A stretch of DNA of 64,000 bases from positions 793 through 64,792 of the forward strand of contig JAONBD010000004.1 in assembly GCA_028376765.1 (NCBI GenBank). The letters are read 5' to 3'. Below the pieces are notes generated by a model. It worked only from the letters and a program-made list of their open reading frames with translations. It did no database searches and was not told the DNA's origin. Below, in pieces: positions 29,820-37,316 of the stretch. How positions within the stretch are numbered: position 1 is the stretch's first letter; each line of letters opens with the position of its first letter. Both the position numbers and the translations under genes were made by a program. The DNA comes from Candidatus Kapaibacterium sp. (lineage in GTDB: Bacteria > Bacteroidota > Ignavibacteria > Kapaibacteriales > UBA2268).

Positions 29820-30660
29820 TTTCATTTTAATAATTTGTTCTTGTGGAAATCCTCAAAGCAATCAATCCATAACAATTGGAACATTCAACATTCAATGGCT
29901 GGGTGATGGAATAAATGACAAAGTAAAAAGAAGTGAAGGTGATTATCAAAGAATTGCTCAATCAATTGAAGATACTGGAGCTGAAATAATTGCATTGCAA
30001 GAAGTTGAAAATGAAGCTGCATTAAATAGAATTTTAAAATATCTCGATGGGTGGAATTATATTTTTGAAAAAGATGATTACATTCTAAACCTAGCTTTTA
30101 TCGCAAAAAATGATATAAAATTAGAATCAATTGGACTCTATTCACCCTTAAAAGTCCTAGAAGGTAAATCAAGATCTGGTTTAATTGCCAAAGCTCAAAA
30201 AGGAAATTTTGATTTTTACATAATGAACCTACATTTCAAATCCACTTCTAGGTACGATAACACTGCTCAAAAAAAAGAGCTCTCTCACTTTTTAAGGAAA
30301 CAACAATCGGACGTGCTATCTGCTTGGGTTGATTCTGTTTTAGTATATAAAGAACAAGATTTAATAATTCTTGGTGATTTTAATGACAATCCCAAACGTG
30401 ATTGGTCGGATAATCTAAATTCCCTTATTCAAAACAACAATATTAACTTTATCTCATCAAATCTTGAATCCTGTAAAAATCCAAATTGGGATAATATTGA
30501 CCATATTTTATTAAGCAAATCTGCCTTAAAGCGTTATTTAATGGGTTCTGTTGGTATGTATAATATTAATTCTACTATGCCAGATAAACAAGCAAAACTT
30601 GTTTCTGATCACTGCCCAGTTACCGCAATTTTCAATATCGCAGCTGACGATAACGATTAA
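29794..30660 (+). CDS. Endonuclease/exonuclease/phosphatase-family lipoprotein
   Basis: Start reassigned to ATG 29794 to give a signal peptide with lipobox; TFNI, LQEV, GDFND, IDHI and SDHCP motifs. Confidence 0.88.
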
Positions 30661-31955
30661 GTTGTTTTCTTAATTATTGCTTTAATATTTGCATGAACAA
30701 TTGGTATTTCTTCCCAATATGTCGAGTACTTGGGTGATAGAAACTCTCTTTTCATACTCCACTTTCTAACGTTCCCTGTAGAAGCAATTGAAATAGTATT
30801 ACTTCCAAATTTCTTGTTTATTGAATCAAGGGTATCAGTTGCTAACTTTCCTTTCAATCTAGATTTACTTTCAAACAATCCGTATTGAGCAGTATCTTCT
30901 GGTACTAGCTCAGCCAACATAACACCAACCTTTTGATATAAGTACCCTTTTCGAAAAATCTGTTCGAAACCTTTTAGTGCATATTTTACAATCTCACTTG
31001 TAATAGAGCTAGGAATTGGTAAATTGATTTGAACTCCATTATGATACTGAGCTAGCTCAGTTTTAAATTTATTTGTTCTTAGATATACTGACATAACTTT
31101 TACAGCACTTCCTTGTTCTCGTATCTTAACAGCTGCTCTCGAGGCAAAAAATGCAACAGCTTCTTTAACTTCTGCTTTAGAATCTGTCATTTTACCAAAT
31201 GATCTACTTGATATAATTACTTTTTTTGGCGGTGCTTGTTCTTCTTGAGCAATACATTCTTGACCATTTAGCTCTCGCCAAGTTCTCTCTCCCACAACAG
31301 TCATTTTTTTTCGTACCCACTTGGAATCAGTACTAATAAAATCCAAGGCACTTTCGACTCCAAATGTATTCAACATTTTTTTATATTTTCCGCCAACTCC
31401 CCAAACATCACCAATAGGTGTTAATTCTAAAAATTTGTTAATATCTTTAAAATCACAAAGGTTCAAAACACCAGAATATTTTTCATTCTTTTTGGCAAAT
31501 CGGTTAGCAAGCTTGGCTAAAGTTTTCGTTTTTGCTACACCAATTGTAACTGGCATACCAGTCCATTTTTTAACTGTCTCTCTAATTTTAATACAATAAT
31601 CAGTAATATTTTTTATATGGAAAATATCAAAAAATAGAAATGCTTCATCAATAGAATAAACTTCAATCTCAGGACAAAACATTTCTAGGGTTTCCATTAC
31701 TCTTTGTGACATATCGCCATAAAGAGCATAGTTTGATGAAAACACAGCCACATTATTTTTTTTAATTTGGTCTTTAACTTTAAAGTAAGGCTTTCCATTT
31801 AGCCCTAATGCTTTTGCTTCTGGACTTGCAGCAATAACAACACCATCATTATTGGATAAAACCACTACTGGTTTATCTGCTAAATCGGGTCTAAACACTT
31901 TCTCGCATGATGCGTAAAAGCTATTACAATCTACAATTGCTATATATTTTGACAT
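30657..31955 (-). CDS. umuC: Y-family DNA polymerase, UmuC type
   Basis: [27 protein letters not shown] and YSIDE motifs; C-terminal [14 protein letters not shown]. Confidence 0.9.
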
Positions 31956-32166: not shown

Positions 32167-32280
32167 GAACACTTTACAGAATGCTTCTACCAAAGTATTC
32201 GTTGACTCTTTTTTGGGCGAAAGCTACCAATCCCAAAACAAAATACTAGAAAACGGTTTATCCATATTTTAAAAATGTTT

Positions 32281-32319
32281 AATAAAAAAAAGCCCAAGAA
32301 CAGTACTTCTTGAGCTTTA
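32281..32319 (-). terminator. Intrinsic terminator, near-duplicate of 37279..37316
   Basis: AAAGCTCAAGA-AGTACTGT-TCTTGGGCTTT plus T run on the minus strand. Confidence 0.75.
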
Positions 32320-32363
32320 GATATTTTTATATTAAGTCTCTATAAATGAAAAGAGTAAGCTTT

Positions 32364-32543
32364 TTAACTTCTTCTAGCGTACCACACACCACTGATTAGC
32401 ATCAAACCCATAAAAGCGTACATTCCCCAATCGCCAAGAGTTGGGATAGTAAACCCAGTTGTCTGTGGAGCATTTGCTGTAAAGTAGTTTGCTGTAGCTT
32501 GATTAGCACCAGTTGCGAAAGGAATTAGTGCAAATCTGAAAGT
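32364..32543 (-). pseudogene. 3' remnant of an IPTL-CTERM surface-protein gene, paralog of 35535..37220
   Basis: Translates to ..FRFALIPFATGANQATANYFTANAPQTTGFTIPTLGDWGMYAFMGLMLISGVWYARRS*; no start codon before the upstream stop. Confidence 0.85.
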
Positions 32544-32567
32544 AGGGGTAAAAAATTAAATTATAAA

Positions 32568-32816
32568 ATGCTCAAGAATGACGAATTATTTATTTGGGTT
32601 ACTCACTACTATCCATCAGAAAACCCATATAATTCAAACGAATATACTGATTTGATTATGTATAATTATAATTCAAATACAATTACTTGGGATACAACAT
32701 TTAGCAAGTACTTTTCCTTAAACCATTTTAGTTTTGATACAACGCACCATTTTATGACATATATTTATGATAAAAATCATGTGTACGATGATAAGACTCA
32801 AAAATGGAGAAGCTAG
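32568..32816 (+). pseudogene. Probable gene fragment (82 aa)
   Basis: Short ORF inside a mosaic region; reads like an internal piece of a beta-rich protein. Confidence 0.35.
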
Positions 32817-32918
32817 GCAAACTTAAAGGACAAATGACTCCAGCCCAGTCTGCTAATTTCATTAAACTACAAGCTAAGTATTTGCATTCTATGCAAAATA
32901 TGTCTTGGTTTTAATAAA

Positions 32919-32926
32919 TATATTTG
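32919..32926 (+). promoter_or_regulatory. -7 promoter box (TATATTTG) for the TerB operon
   Basis: TAnnTTTG match; overlaps the ORF-track TTG start, favouring ATG 33002. Confidence 0.55.
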
Positions 32927-33001
32927 CCCCACCGAATAATTTATATATTGCGATATGGAAGAATACAAATAAATACTTTTAATACAATAAATGGAGTACT
33001 G

Positions 33002-33460
33002 ATGGACTATAACATAAATGAGGTTTTTGAAACCTTAGATTCAAAACAAAATTTTCTAAAGGGAATTATCTCTCTTATTTGGGCAGATGGTGTCATAAAA
33101 ATAGAGGAAGACGAATTCTTAAAAGATTTATCTCTTCATCTTAAATTGACTACCGAACAATTAACTCAATTATATAGTTTACTAAAAGATGATAATGCTG
33201 AGTTGGCATTAAAATTTGAGAATGATATTCAACGATTAGTATTTCTAAAAGAAGGAATTCAACTTTGCTATATTGATGGTAATTACGATAGTAGGGAGAA
33301 AAAAATGATGCGTGATTATTCTAAACAATTTAATATAAGTGAGGAATTTATAACTAATTTGGAAAATTGGGTTATTGATGGTCTGGCGTGGTATAAGAAA
33401 GGTTTAGAACTGTTTGGTCATACAGAAGAATTATCAATTATAAATAAAGTAGGTGTCTAA
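33002..33460 (+). CDS. TerB-like protein
   Basis: Two TerB-type motifs (WADGVIKIEE; YIDGNYDSREK); GGAG RBS before ATG 33002. Confidence 0.8.
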   Translation: MDYNINEVFETLDSKQNFLKGIISLIWADGVIKIEEDEFLKDLSLHLKLTTEQLTQLYSLLKDDNAELALKFENDIQRLVFLKEGIQLCYIDGNYDSREKKMMRDYSKQFNISEEFITNLENWVIDGLAWYKKGLELFGHTEELSIINKVGV

Positions 33461-34019
33461 TATGTCTAAATCAAAAATGAAATATAAATCATCAGAATCT
33501 TTAAATTCAATAAATATTGTACTTGAAGAAGCAGACTCTGCAGTTAAAGATACTACTAGGACTATACAAAAAAGTGCAATACCTGAATTACTAGGTGTAG
33601 CAGTTGGTGCTGGTGTTGGAGGTGCGGCATCATTTGCTGGCTTGTATTTTGGTGGGTCAATTATTGGATTGAGTGGAGCAGGAATTACCTCAGGACTTGC
33701 TGCAGCTGGCGGAATAGTTGGTGGAGGAATGACAGCAGGTATTTTTGTTCTTGCAGCCCCTGTTGCATTTCTAGGCGTAGCAGGATATGGTCTTGTATCT
33801 AGGTATAAAAAAAATAAACTACGTGAAGAAAAAGAAGCTATGCTTCAAGAGGTAATGAAGAGACATGACGCAATTATAAATGCTATTAAAGATGAATCAA
33901 ACCAGACTAAACAAAGAGCTGACTATCTTAATGCTTTGAACATTTTGTTACAAGGTGTAATTAATGATTTAAGAGAAGACCTAGGTTTAGATAACAAGCT
34001 ATTACCACAAGGGACATGA
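33453..34019 (+). CDS. Glycine-zipper membrane protein with C-terminal coiled coil
   Basis: GLSGAGITSGLAAAGGIVGGGMTAGI hydrophobic hairpin then heptad-rich helix; start may be ATG 33462. Confidence 0.8.
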   Translation: MSNMSKSKMKYKSSESLNSINIVLEEADSAVKDTTRTIQKSAIPELLGVAVGAGVGGAASFAGLYFGGSIIGLSGAGITSGLAAAGGIVGGGMTAGIFVLAAPVAFLGVAGYGLVSRYKKNKLREEKEAMLQEVMKRHDAIINAIKDESNQTKQRADYLNALNILLQGVINDLREDLGLDNKLLPQGT

Positions 34020-35473
34020 TGGGTAAGAAAAATGTGAAAGAACAAGAGCAAGAGCTATTAAAGGTTGCAAAACATCAATCAAATGAACTTTCAGAAATCA
34101 AGAATGTTAATCAAGAGACTAAATCTAGTTTAGTCTCTTCGATAGATAGTTCAGAGAAATTACTAAAAGAGCTTGGTGCAAAAGTCAATAAAAATGATAT
34201 GGAGAATGAAAATACTTCAACAAATACTCCAGTTAAAGTTACTAAAATTAGAAGCTGGGATGAGATTAGCTCTGAAGCCAAAGAACAAATTCTAGGTGAG
34301 GTTTCTTTTACTGATTTGTTAAGTGCTGAAGATATTGAAAAATCAGTTTCAAAAGTAGCATTTCTTCGTGAAGAATTCGATAAAGAATATAATCCTCAAT
34401 GTGATAAGTATGATTATATGATTGCGGCTGCTTGTGGCTCTATTGGTGGTTTGATTGATGCTATATTTGTTGATATTCCTAAAGAAGGAATGTTAAGTAA
34501 AAAAATTGATAAAAAGTCAGATAAGGTAGTTGAAAAAATCGCAGAATATTTTGGATGGAATAAGTCTAAAGCTGTAGAAAAAGGTTCAAACACAACAAAA
34601 TCAGCTATTGGTTTTTTAGAAAAAATATTTCCTGTTAATTATGACCACAGACATGGAGGTGATGTTAAACATTTATTTAAAATGTCAACGAAAAACCACC
34701 ATTTAAAGTCTATAGCTCATTCTCCTGATATATTTGGACTTGTTTATTCCATATTTAATCAGTTTACAAATACAGCTTCATTTATTGATAATGGGAAAAT
34801 AATCACCATTAAAACTGATACCTTTGAACTACAAGGGTCTAACGTGGCATCTAAAATATTTTCAGGTTTTGTGAATTGGATTGGACATTTAGCTTCTGAC
34901 TTCAATGGTTCAAGTGGTAATGTAAATCGTGGGACTGGTATTCCAATTCCTTTTTATGAATTGTTCCAATTCTTGAACTTTGGAAACTTTGGTAAACATA
35001 AACAATCATTTGCTGATATAGCTACTCAAGTCTTTGAGCAAGGATATGATTTGAGACATGGTATTGCTATGTCTATACCTACAATCATAACTGAATTATT
35101 AGTTAGATTTATGTTCACAATAAAGCAGAAGTTCTACCACAATAAAACTTGGAAGGAGTCTTTACCTATTGGGAATAATCTTGAACTACAACGTATGTTA
35201 TTAACTGCTCATGGTTGTTTCTTTCTAATTGACGTTGCTGATGCAGCTTTAAAATCTGGCGGGAATTGGGTTATGTTCTTTACTAGGATGAATTTAGTTG
35301 AGAGTGTGAGGTTTGCTCAACTTGGGTTTAAAGAAGCCAAAAGATTAGCACTACGAGAATCGAAAAGACATGAGCAAGTAATGGACAACCTGAATGAAGA
35401 TTGGACAAAGTTAAATAAATCACTTGAAGAAACTTGGGCTTTAATGTCCGAAGAGTATGTGTTTGTAGAATGA
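34016..35473 (+). CDS. Hypothetical protein: N-terminal coiled coil plus hydrophobic His-rich core
   Basis: 485 aa; DYMIAAACGSIGGLID, YDHRHG, HHLKSIAH, WIGHLASD and GYDLRH motifs; ATGA overlap with previous gene. Confidence 0.8.
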   Translation: MMGKKNVKEQEQELLKVAKHQSNELSEIKNVNQETKSSLVSSIDSSEKLLKELGAKVNKNDMENENTSTNTPVKVTKIRSWDEISSEAKEQILGEVSFTDLLSAEDIEKSVSKVAFLREEFDKEYNPQCDKYDYMIAAACGSIGGLIDAIFVDIPKEGMLSKKIDKKSDKVVEKIAEYFGWNKSKAVEKGSNTTKSAIGFLEKIFPVNYDHRHGGDVKHLFKMSTKNHHLKSIAHSPDIFGLVYSIFNQFTNTASFIDNGKIITIKTDTFELQGSNVASKIFSGFVNWIGHLASDFNGSSGNVNRGTGIPIPFYELFQFLNFGNFGKHKQSFADIATQVFEQGYDLRHGIAMSIPTIITELLVRFMFTIKQKFYHNKTWKESLPIGNNLELQRMLLTAHGCFFLIDVADAALKSGGNWVMFFTRMNLVESVRFAQLGFKEAKRLALRESKRHEQVMDNLNEDWTKLNKSLEETWALMSEEYVFVE

Positions 35474-35534
35474 ATCATCCTTAAATATTTCATATTAAGA
35501 AAGTCAATTATCAACTGATATTTGGCTTTCCTTT

Positions 35535-37220
35535 TTAACTTCTTCTCACATACCACACACCACCGATTAGCATTAAACCCATAAAAGCGTACATTCCCCA
35601 ATCGCCAAGAGTTGGGATAGTAAATGCTCTTAATGTTGGAGGGTTGGCTGTTAGATAATTTGTGGTTGCAATATTACTACCAACCTTGTAAGGTATTAAT
35701 ACAAAATTATAATCCTGCTGTGCTACTAAACTACTAACTGTAAAGCTAGTTGCTGTATTATTAGTTATTTTTGCAACTACTGTCCCATTACCTATATTAT
35801 CAGTTACAGAATAATCTGAGCCATCAACTGGGTAGTTACTTGAGCTAACATTACTACTAGTTTGAATGATCAAATATCCATCAGCATTAGCTCCAAAAGC
35901 TGCGAACCCTAATACTATTTCATTTTTATTTTGACCAATTTGATAAAATGTATTAGAATGAACACTTGGCTCAGCATCTAATGTCCAGAAACTTGTTTCG
36001 TTGCTTTCCGTCCAAGAAACAGAATTTGTAGCACTTGCTCTTATAAAATATTGTGTAGCAGCTGTTAATGTTGTTGGATTAATCCCAACATTTACCGTGG
36101 AGCTAGATCCAGATATTGTTGCTGATTCCGAATCAATATAATTGCCAGAGCTTAACCCTATATCAAAAGTATAAGTTGTAGTCACATTCCCTGAATATAA
36201 ATCCATAGAAATAGTCGCAGAAGTAGAATTGTTTAAACCAACTCCTGTTAAGTTATAAATTACTGGTTTCATCGGTGGTTCTGTATCAAATATCCAAGTC
36301 TCATCAAAATTTACACCATCAGAACCACCAAAAAGAAGAATTTCAGTATCGCTAATACGATCCATCATTGCAAGTCTTCTAATACTTGGTTGTGAAGGAG
36401 TAGCAAGCTGTGACCATGAGCCACTTGTTCTTTCAAATAACCATGTATCATTATTATCAACACTTGTTCTCCCACCAAATAATAACGCTTCATTATTACT
36501 TATTCTTGCCATCATAGCGTCCCGTCTTGCACTTGGTTGTGAGGGAGTGATTAATTCAGTCCAAGATCCACTACTTCTATCAAATAACCAGGTCTCATCT
36601 ATATTATTACCATCATGCCCACCAAAAAGAAGAACTTCGGTATCGCTAATGCGGCTCATCATACCCTGATTTCTAACACTTGGTTGGGAAGGAGTAGCCA
36701 GCTGTGTCCATGAGCCACTATTATTATCAAACAGCCAAGTGTCATTAAAACGTGAATCATCAAAACCTCCAAAAAGTAATACTTCTGAATCGCTAATTCT
36801 ACTCATCATTGCATAGCGTCTTGCACTTGGTTGTGTAGGTGTTGCAAGCTGAGTCCATGAGCCACTGTTGTTATTAAATCTCCACGTTTCATTGTTATAA
36901 GTCCCATTATCTCCTCCAAATAGCAAAACATCATTTTCGCTAATGCGTGACATCATAGATCCATATCTTGCACTTGGTTGTGTAGGTGTAGAAAGTTGCG
37001 TCCAAGAACCACTACTTCTATCAAATCGCCAAGTTTCGTTATTATTGCCCCCTCCGTCAATACCTCCAAACAGCAATGCTTCAGTTTCACTTATTCGGGC
37101 CATCATTCCAATTCTTCTTGCACTTGGCTCCGTTGGGGTCTCCAACTGAGTCCAAGAACCTGAGGATTGCCCAAAAGCTACACCGCTAAGAAATATGACA
37201 AATAGAAATATTTTTTTCAT
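35535..37220 (-). CDS. Secreted Kelch-repeat + FN3-like surface protein with IPTL-CTERM sorting signal
   Basis: Signal peptide + Gln; six ~49-aa Kelch repeats (LLFGG..TW); C-terminal IPTLGDWG-TM-RR. Confidence 0.88.
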   Translation of the reverse strand: MKKIFLFVIFLSGVAFGQSSGSWTQLETPTEPSARRIGMMARISETEALLFGGIDGGGNNNETWRFDRSSGSWTQLSTPTQPSARYGSMMSRISENDVLLFGGDNGTYNNETWRFNNNSGSWTQLATPTQPSARRYAMMSRISDSEVLLFGGFDDSRFNDTWLFDNNSGSWTQLATPSQPSVRNQGMMSRISDTEVLLFGGHDGNNIDETWLFDRSSGSWTELITPSQPSARRDAMMARISNNEALLFGGRTSVDNNDTWLFERTSGSWSQLATPSQPSIRRLAMMDRISDTEILLFGGSDGVNFDETWIFDTEPPMKPVIYNLTGVGLNNSTSATISMDLYSGNVTTTYTFDIGLSSGNYIDSESATISGSSSTVNVGINPTTLTAATQYFIRASATNSVSWTESNETSFWTLDAEPSVHSNTFYQIGQNKNEIVLGFAAFGANADGYLIIQTSSNVSSSNYPVDGSDYSVTDNIGNGTVVAKITNNTATSFTVSSLVAQQDYNFVLIPYKVGSNIATTNYLTANPPTLRAFTIPTLGDWGMYAFMGLMLIGGVWYVRRS

Positions 37221-37278: not shown

Positions 37279-37316
37279 AATAAAAAAAGCCCAAGAACAG
37301 TACTTCCCCGAGCTTT
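37279..37316 (-). terminator. Intrinsic terminator after the glycosyltransferase, near-duplicate of 32281..32319
   Basis: AGCTCGGGGA-AGTACTGT-TCTTGGGCT plus T run. Confidence 0.7.

Follow-up and report, generated by a model that had tools for sequence, protein, structure and literature searches.

The closest described relative of the locus considered here is Bunzi, whose BnzA component is presented, in the part of the report by Millman et al. 2022 (10.1101/2022.05.11.491447) available to us, as a TerB protein with predicted transmembrane helices and a lipid-interacting domain, for which a role in membrane surveillance was suggested; the same part of the report states that Bunzi protected against phages after transplantation. 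A second point of comparison is Dionysus, which, as far as the accessible portion of its description goes (10.1101/2025.09.30.679545), is composed of DinA (MAEBL and a transmembrane region), the TerB-like DinB and DinC, a four-transmembrane pore-forming toxin, and needs its stand-alone TerB-like protein for activity. Here we describe a three-gene operon (positions 32924-35473, plus strand) within 64,000 nucleotides (nt) of a Candidatus Kapaibacterium sp. contig, JAONBD010000004.1; this whole stretch is referred to as the window and all positions are counted in it. A first-pass annotation, made from the sequence alone, had proposed the operon as an anti-phage or membrane-surveillance module and had named Bunzi for comparison, and both suggestions are borne out: gene 3 is BnzB, gene 2 corresponds to the membrane part of BnzA, and gene 1 supplies a TerB protein. 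We interpret the locus (at a probability of about 0.72) as a Bunzi-family defence operon in which BnzA is split and trimmed into a TerB protein and a short hairpin protein while BnzB is complete; that it is a member of the Bunzi family at all is very probable indeed. As gene 3 is a whole-length BnzB and gene 2 the membrane part of a BnzA, the system is not new in kind.

The comparison with Bunzi used the PADLOC models PDLC03833 and PDLC03834 as profile hidden Markov models (HMMs) at the level of single proteins. The product of gene 3 (34016-35473, plus strand; 485 amino acids, aa) matched the BnzB model (PDLC03834) nearly end to end (E 2.7e-150; residues 4-468 aligned to positions 27-502 of 504). 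No second BnzB copy was found in the 1.77-Mb assembly, which is rated 76% complete. At least 1004 homologues of gene 3 were found, and its identity to canonical BnzB proteins is about 45-49%. Sixteen of its residues are at least 90% conserved both in the canonical BnzB clade and in a second, short-type clade discussed below (D133, D210, H228, H235, P237, G241, H291, S294, D295, G308, P310, P312, Y344, D345, E360 and L395), and D210, H228, H235, H291, S294, D295, Y344 and D345 substantiate the His/Asp motifs to which attention had been drawn in the first reading. This conserved set of Asp, His, Ser, Tyr and Glu residues, spread over the helical core, suggests from the alignment a metal or catalytic site. 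The structural model of BnzB is all-helical, with a long N-terminal helix (predicted local distance difference test, pLDDT, 72.7), and hydropathy points to three moderately hydrophobic helices; the motifs with the strongest conservation fall in loops of low model confidence (residues 208-237, 256-275 and 299-309).

Gene 2 (33462-34019, plus strand) encodes a short BnzA in which an N-terminal helix is followed by a Gly/Ala-zipper membrane hairpin (residues 43-117) and then by a coiled coil at the C-terminus. Its match to the PADLOC BnzA model (E 2.6e-13) is confined to positions 296-411 of 544, and an HMM built from canonical BnzA recognizes it at positions 312-414 (E 6.4e-15). As only about one fifth of the BnzA model is covered, a coverage filter might reject the protein. 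In fact, 100 short proteins, gene 2 included, align to a single segment of the canonical BnzA HMM (~290-415), and the comparison of the short-BnzA and canonical BnzA families by hhalign gave a probability of 98.7%. The Gly/Ala-rich hydrophobic stretch reaches a maximum Kyte-Doolittle 19-residue score of 2.18, and many of its Gly, Ala and Ser positions are invariant among 30 homologues, in agreement with the zipper hairpin and coiled coil recognized earlier. Homologues of similar length (~180 aa) are numerous (n=2366); the best 120 of these 2366 share 53-61% identity over 84-98% of the query and measure 174-231 aa. On this sequence evidence gene 2 is assigned to a large stand-alone "short BnzA" family and is no fragment; it may act as a pore-forming effector. 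Profiles of long and short BnzA compared with Protein Data Bank (PDB) sequences returned no credible match. As a separate observation, gene 2 and the canonical BnzA of locus L033 both weakly match the hairpin region of the PADLOC model LeoBC (E 2.5e-4 and 4.2e-5, respectively), and the Bunzi membrane hairpin may be distantly related to that of LeoBC, a protein that we take to be dynamin-like.

To place genes 1 and 2 relative to BnzA, canonical loci were collected by a scan of one genome per species, which yielded 80 BnzB loci, 73 of them with at least 1800 nt of upstream DNA. Of these 73, 61 have a long BnzA immediately 5' of BnzB, here taken as an open reading frame (ORF) of at least 480 aa that is similar to gene 2 and terminates where BnzB begins. 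The other 12 include two loci in which the BnzB start was extended by the ORF-calling rule (L004 and L013), three with an upstream ORF of 435-570 aa that was missed by the single-sequence search (L030, L072 and L081) and several with fragmented BnzA genes (L022, L043 and L058), the pieces of which sum to ~520-580 aa. Canonical BnzA, ~550 aa in length (543-604), is organized in the order N-terminal domain, TerB-like segment, membrane hairpin, coiled coil and C-terminal domain; the L033 protein, for example, covers positions 1-543 of the PADLOC model (E 1.9e-165). At an E-value of 0.1 the Pfam TerB family was detected in none of five canonical BnzA proteins, and DUF533, which is presumably TerB-related, was weakly matched by 7 of 29 (best E 1.3e-4). 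When the HMM of the gene 1 family was run against 5296 ORFs of the canonical loci, it picked out BnzA-derived ORFs only (11 at E 1 or better); these matches are weak (E 0.0017-0.41) but consistent, as each of the 11 ORFs has one at BnzA residues ~160-220, a segment shortly ahead of the hairpin (~310-370). Since canonical BnzA thus has a weak TerB-like segment ahead of its hairpin, genes 1 and 2 can be equated with its TerB and membrane-anchor core, and we conclude that they recreate the TerB, hairpin and first-helix core of BnzA as two proteins. The relation of the TerB of gene 1 to the TerB-like segment of BnzA is weak, and homology of the two is tentative.

Overall, the operon shares with Bunzi a complete BnzB and the BnzA membrane hairpin with its first helix; it has a TerB domain as well, on a separate protein that is only weakly related to the TerB-like segment of BnzA, and here as in canonical loci (a layout that also occurs on a lactococcal plasmid) the gene for the membrane protein overlaps the start of BnzB. 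On the other hand, canonical BnzA is one protein of 543-604 aa, whereas here TerB has a gene of its own that the BnzA model does not recognize; the N-terminal (~150 residues) and C-terminal (~130 residues) parts of BnzA are missing from the operon; and gene 3 falls outside a well-supported clade that contains all 73 BnzB proteins with a long BnzA.

The product of gene 1 (33002-33460, plus strand; 152 aa, acidic and soluble, with no hydrophobic segment in a hydropathy scan) had been described as a stand-alone protein with two TerB-type DG-x5-E motifs, and this description holds. It matches Pfam TerB (PF05099) in two stretches with E 1.6e-6 and 28.8 bits (cut-off 24.4), both motifs are present, and the glutamates E36 and E99 are invariant in an alignment of 43 family members. 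A structure model built from these 43 sequences has a mean pLDDT of 90 and, among solved folds, is most similar to the TerB-like structure 2ou3_A (probability 1.00, TM-score 0.58, Foldseek E 0.067); the family profile likewise retrieved 2ou3 (8.8e-12) and the TerB structure 2jxu (0.0059) from the PDB. An exhaustive HMMER search collected 222 relatives, mostly of 135-150 aa, where a word-index search returned nothing beyond the gene 1 protein; the match of gene 1 to its own family is full-length and includes a C-terminal W-x3-G-x2-W helix. The closest relatives are P0242 and P0243 (116 and 114 bits). Judging from the profile matches and the predicted fold, gene 1 is a real TerB-fold protein. 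Among its relatives, a 389-aa protein (P0309) has an N-terminal Gly-rich hydrophobic stretch fused to a gene-1-type TerB (residues 66-186), so that one chain combines TerB with a glycine-rich membrane segment, in an order reversed with respect to BnzA.

The three genes are tightly coupled and oriented against their neighbours, as had been noted in the first-pass annotation, with minus-strand genes on either side (30657-31955 and 35535-37220). The stop codon of gene 1 (TAA, 33458-33460) is separated by 1 nt from the ATG of gene 2 (33462) in a TAAtATG junction, and genes 2 and 3 (the short BnzA gene and the BnzB gene directly downstream of it on the same strand) overlap by ATGA (34016-34019). 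For gene 2 either this ATG (185 aa) or a GTG at 33453 (188 aa) may serve as start. The ORF of gene 1 spans 32924-33460; the ATG at 33002 is its likely start, because the relative P0243 begins with identical residues, and an alternative TTG at 32924 overlaps the promoter-like box. This box, TAtaTTTG (32919-32926, plus strand), lies 76 nt 5' of the gene 1 ATG and is a possible -7 promoter element of the operon. The operon thus does have a TAnnTTTG box of its own, as had been pointed out, though the window shows no excess of the motif (120 occurrences against an expected 106.6 +/- 10.7); being no commoner than chance it is weak evidence by itself, and only the position of the box counts. The GC content of the operon (0.31-0.33) equals that of its surroundings.

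Short BnzA proteins comparable to gene 2 were followed to 115 other loci (80 metagenome and 35 viral-contig loci; 91 of the 115 with at least 600 nt upstream). A gene-2-like ORF of at most 260 aa is present in 79 of the 80 metagenome loci. Where enough downstream DNA was available, a BnzB-like gene follows the short BnzA at 60 of 65 metagenome loci (directly in 39, past a small gene or a gap in 21) and at all 33 viral loci. Publicly annotated examples are found in an Acutalibacteraceae phage (PV036426.1) and on a plasmid of Limosilactobacillus mucosae (NZ_CP058956.1), with BnzB-like proteins that match the PADLOC BnzB model at ~1e-64. When viral contigs were searched with gene 3 as the sole query, no relative was found. 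These short-type operons, which are uncharacterized and occur mostly in Bacillota, phages and plasmids, resemble the present one in having a short BnzA, 55-61% identical to gene 2 over almost all of its length, followed by a BnzB-like gene. They differ in that their BnzB-like proteins, which group in a clade of their own, share only ~24-27% identity with gene 3 (phmmer E 1e-5 to 1e-50), in that many carry an extra gene of 95-130 aa, and in that a helix-turn-helix (HTH) regulator is often, and a gene-1-type TerB never, found upstream. The extra gene, which stands between the short BnzA and the BnzB-like gene (L087 in PV036426.1, L088 on NZ_CP058956.1, and many of the loci L089-L168 and L197-L232), is faintly gene-2-like (E 1e-3 to 1e-17); the operon in the window has neither this gene nor an upstream HTH gene. 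In two further loci, on the L. plantarum plasmid NZ_CP020097.1 (L195) and in the phage PV036416.1 (L196), a 369-aa gene lies downstream of a 480-aa BnzB-like gene, and directly 5' of the latter no gene is annotated as BnzA-like.

In a FastTree phylogeny of 138 BnzB-type proteins (midpoint root), the 52 partners of short BnzA stand on one side of a fully supported branch, and all 73 partners of long BnzA belong to a clade of 79 that has full support. The gene 3 protein falls between both groups, together with P0013 and five proteins of 469-480 aa (P0002, P0011, P0076, P0096 and P0113), a placement that is provisional because long-branch joins and uneven composition were flagged. One of the five, P0113, and the short-BnzA relative P0233 have the same longest contig (14,879 nt), which hints that the in-between BnzB group likewise pairs with short BnzA.

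Several findings weigh against reading the operon as a split and trimmed Bunzi. No full-length homologue of BnzA, as one protein covering the ~544 model positions, is encoded here; neither the N-terminal ~150 nor the C-terminal ~130 residues of BnzA (~415-544) have a counterpart in genes 1 and 2, and the lipid-interacting domain of BnzA may lie in one of these missing end regions. Gene 1 itself is not matched by the BnzA model of PADLOC (threshold E 1), and profile-profile comparison of its family with canonical BnzA gave probabilities of 3.5% and 4.5%, which are not significant. An ORF of the gene 1 family was found at none of the 115 other short-BnzA loci, and 34 upstream ORFs scanned at short-type loci comprised 15 HTH regulators and no TerB; therefore TerB is no general part of short-type systems, and the three-gene layout is rare. 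Small TerB proteins with a distant resemblance to gene 1 (at most 60 bits) are also common in the phylum where there is no Bunzi (54 of 400 genomes). Nor does any fold or family match assign an activity to BnzB: Foldseek against the PDB returned nothing at E 0.001 or better (best E 0.2), the best of 48,161 chains compared by VIA-align was a designed helical protein (Z 8.7, root-mean-square deviation 3.0 over 105 residues, a score in the range that is usual for helical models according to the tool), the sequence profile had no match in the PDB, and the ESM Atlas contained "hypothetical protein" clusters only. As BnzB was folded as one 485-residue model and not domain by domain, a match to a single domain could have been missed. 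Finally, a lactococcal plasmid Bunzi of canonical layout gave zero protection against the phages tried, according to the part of that report at hand (PMC11381338).

The rarity of the TerB gene, its insignificant similarity to BnzA by profile-profile comparison and the wide occurrence of solitary small TerB proteins in the phylum would all be expected if the working system consisted of short BnzA and BnzB only, with gene 1 a bystander TerB stress protein or a mere sharer of the transcript. A number of observations speak to the contrary. The ATG of gene 2 follows the stop codon of gene 1 after only 1 nt, and the sole promoter-like box sits 5' of gene 1. Gene 1 is nearer to P0242 and P0243 than to the phylum's own TerB proteins, and P0242, its best relative, apparently has a contig in common with P0122, the protein most similar to gene 2 (61% identity): each of the two is recorded on two contigs, the longest of 5328 nt, and this agreement suggests a second locus with a TerB/short-BnzA pair. 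The TerB-like segment of canonical BnzA, moreover, occupies the matching position. In a prediction of a three-chain complex, gene 1 as partner scored 0.47 (runs 0.47, 0.00 and 0.48) against 0.01 for the best control, and 0.01 once BnzB was replaced (partner pLDDT at least 65, contact agreement between runs at least 0%). In calibration 58 of 80 solved complexes reached the mark of the tool, as did 2 of 110 mismatched pairs, but only 7 of the 80 solved complexes, and both of the passing mismatches, reached it with a score of 0.60 or below; the prediction is thus weak support for gene 1 as a partner in the complex. Taken together, it is fairly probable that gene 1 is a working part of the system, and the bystander explanation seems unlikely.

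The shortness of the two proteins raises a different question, namely whether the locus is a decayed Bunzi, a canonical BnzA having been broken and shortened by deletions and the genes being dead. Genes 1 and 2 together encode 340 aa while BnzA has ~550 aa, broken BnzA genes are seen at other loci (L022, L043 and L058), and a gene remnant adjoins the operon. Yet all three frames are open and their junctions coupled, gene 2 matches a family of 2366 members of its own length end to end (55-61% identity over 91-97% of its length), gene 1 is full-length with respect to its own family down to the C-terminal W-x3-G-x2-W helix, and gene 1 is not recognizable as part of a BnzA. There is hardly any likelihood left for decay. 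A simple frameshift of canonical BnzA was considered separately and rejected, because genes 1 and 2 each match a stand-alone family of their own end to end; their 340 aa also compare with the ~520-580 aa to which true frameshifted cases sum.

A third alternative concerns function. The operon could be a membrane-stress or ion-homeostasis device, or a prophage-derived set for lysis timing or superinfection found out of its context, and not be anti-phage here. TerB was first linked to tellurite and stress resistance, as stated in the part of Millman et al. seen by us (10.1101/2022.05.11.491447); short-type relatives are common on viral contigs and in phage genomes (36 loci; PV036426.1 among the annotated examples) and sometimes stand near holin or lysozyme genes; and the operon is without flanking defence genes. 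However, the system of which BnzB is the signature protein protected, by the same partial account, against phages when transplanted (10.1101/2022.05.11.491447), phage-borne copies would equally result from defence carried by prophages, and no other ter genes or lysis genes are nearby. A role other than defence has a very low probability here.

No published mechanism for Bunzi was found in the literature searched, and the following scheme is put forward for the present operon. Gene 2, oligomerizing by way of its glycine zipper, would use the zipper hairpin as an inner-membrane anchor for the complex and would hold BnzB by helical contacts, while the TerB protein could be a sensing or regulatory subunit or a brake, possibly seated on BnzB. 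Disturbance of the membrane or of ion balance by a phage would switch the complex on, and the cell would be killed or arrested before phage maturation, in an abortive defence at the membrane. Killing might be brought about by ion-leaking hairpin oligomers or by an activity of BnzB that uses the conserved Asp/His site. A mode of action by membrane damage is conceivable but rather doubtful.

Of other systems with TerB, Dionysus is similar in having three genes with a stand-alone TerB-like protein and membrane proteins, and in the accessible part of its description it offers an analogy for a TerB subunit acting in trans. Nothing, however, points to homology of genes 2 and 3 with DinA or DinC, which were compared by description only, and the identity of gene 3 as BnzB argues against membership of Dionysus. 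With Shango (SngA, a TerB protein, with an ATPase and a helicase) the operon shares the TerB domain only and has neither a SngB ATPase nor a SngC helicase partner; this comparison, likewise proposed in the first-pass annotation, came out negative, as none of the three proteins matched the Shango models in PADLOC at E 1 or better. In tellurite-resistance clusters TerB is found beside ter genes such as terC, terD and terZ. Unlike these, gene 1 has no other ter gene beside its operon; a Pfam search of the flanking genes detected no Ter families and no lysis genes.

The Bunzi-type operon is sporadic in its distribution. Among 60 related genomes BnzB was found in none (51 of the 61 searched, the present one included, are rated at least 90% complete), and 400 genomes of the phylum yielded three weak partial matches to gene 2 only. 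BnzB relatives are recorded on 489 plasmid records (435 of them predicted to be conjugative) and 3 phage records. The operon is therefore probably a transferred cassette of sporadic occurrence. The view of it as part of a horizontally acquired island is consistent with this distribution as regards acquisition and is only partly supported as regards the island: GC content is that of the surroundings, and the operon is outside any defence island. The genes flanking it are housekeeping genes by Pfam (porin, proline dehydrogenase, EEP nuclease/phosphatase, Y-family polymerase, Kelch-repeat protein, glycosyltransferase and Fe-S oxidoreductase), and the 50 other ORFs of the window gave generic PADLOC matches only (MzaA, mad2 and PDC-M43B), of which the two that were checked are found likewise in most control genomes.

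The operon is bounded by direct repeats, as reported before. The upstream copy (32360-32534) and the downstream copy (35531-35705) are 78% identical over 175 nt with a near-identical core, and an exact 25-mer recurs at 32285-32309 and 37282-37306. The downstream copy is the 3' end of an intact minus-strand Kelch-repeat gene (35535-37220), and the upstream copy, also on the minus strand, is the 3'-end remnant of a paralogue of that gene, with 58 C-terminal residues ending in ...IPTLGDWGMYAFMGLMLISGVWYARRS; of the gene fragments among which the operon had been placed, this is the one that was confirmed. A terminator-like hairpin follows the remnant on the minus strand (32318-32289), and its 25-nt core occurs again, exactly, after the glycosyltransferase gene. 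The pattern fits an insertion or recombination that may have deleted most of one of two tandem Kelch paralogues. Orthologues of the flanking genes in four genomes of the same genus are 43-54% identical and lie on different contigs, and are too diverged to date the insertion. For 32200-35700 no sequencing run was listed, which does not show that there are none.

Some features of the neighbourhood may be recorded in their own right. The intact Kelch-repeat protein is built of 147-nt tandem units (five to six copies, 65-79% identity); its C-terminal hydrophobic tail ...IPTLGDWGMYAFMGLMLIGGVWYVRRS resembles a sorting signal, and many paralogues exist in the same-genus genomes. An ORF of 82 aa (32568-32816, plus strand) with a high content of Tyr, Asn, Thr and His lies between the remnant and the operon; it has no match in Pfam and may be a gene, a fragment or a piece of the cassette. 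In the segment 31995-32050, just upstream of the umuC-like Y-family polymerase gene (30657-31955, minus strand), three repeats of TGGTAACA precede a perfect 14-nt inverted repeat (32013-32026/32035-32048), which may be an operator for a damage-response regulator.

For this genome the finding is an ordinary one: a single, sporadically distributed defence operon and no new kind of system. Its interest lies with the family. We tentatively suggest, as a possibility short of even odds, that Bunzi is part of a larger modular family with a core of a ~180-aa glycine-zipper hairpin protein and a BnzB-like protein, to which TerB may be fused, supplied in trans or absent, the present operon being a fission or an intermediate form. 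This core is abundant on Bacillota phages and plasmids, mostly without TerB, and TerB would on this view be an exchangeable sensor or regulator. As the BnzA model recognizes the short proteins only in part, counts of Bunzi may understate the family. The natural split of TerB from the membrane anchor makes it testable whether TerB is a sensor and whether it acts on BnzB, so that its role becomes approachable without cutting a multidomain protein; the operon would then be a ready-made means to separate sensing from killing in Bunzi.

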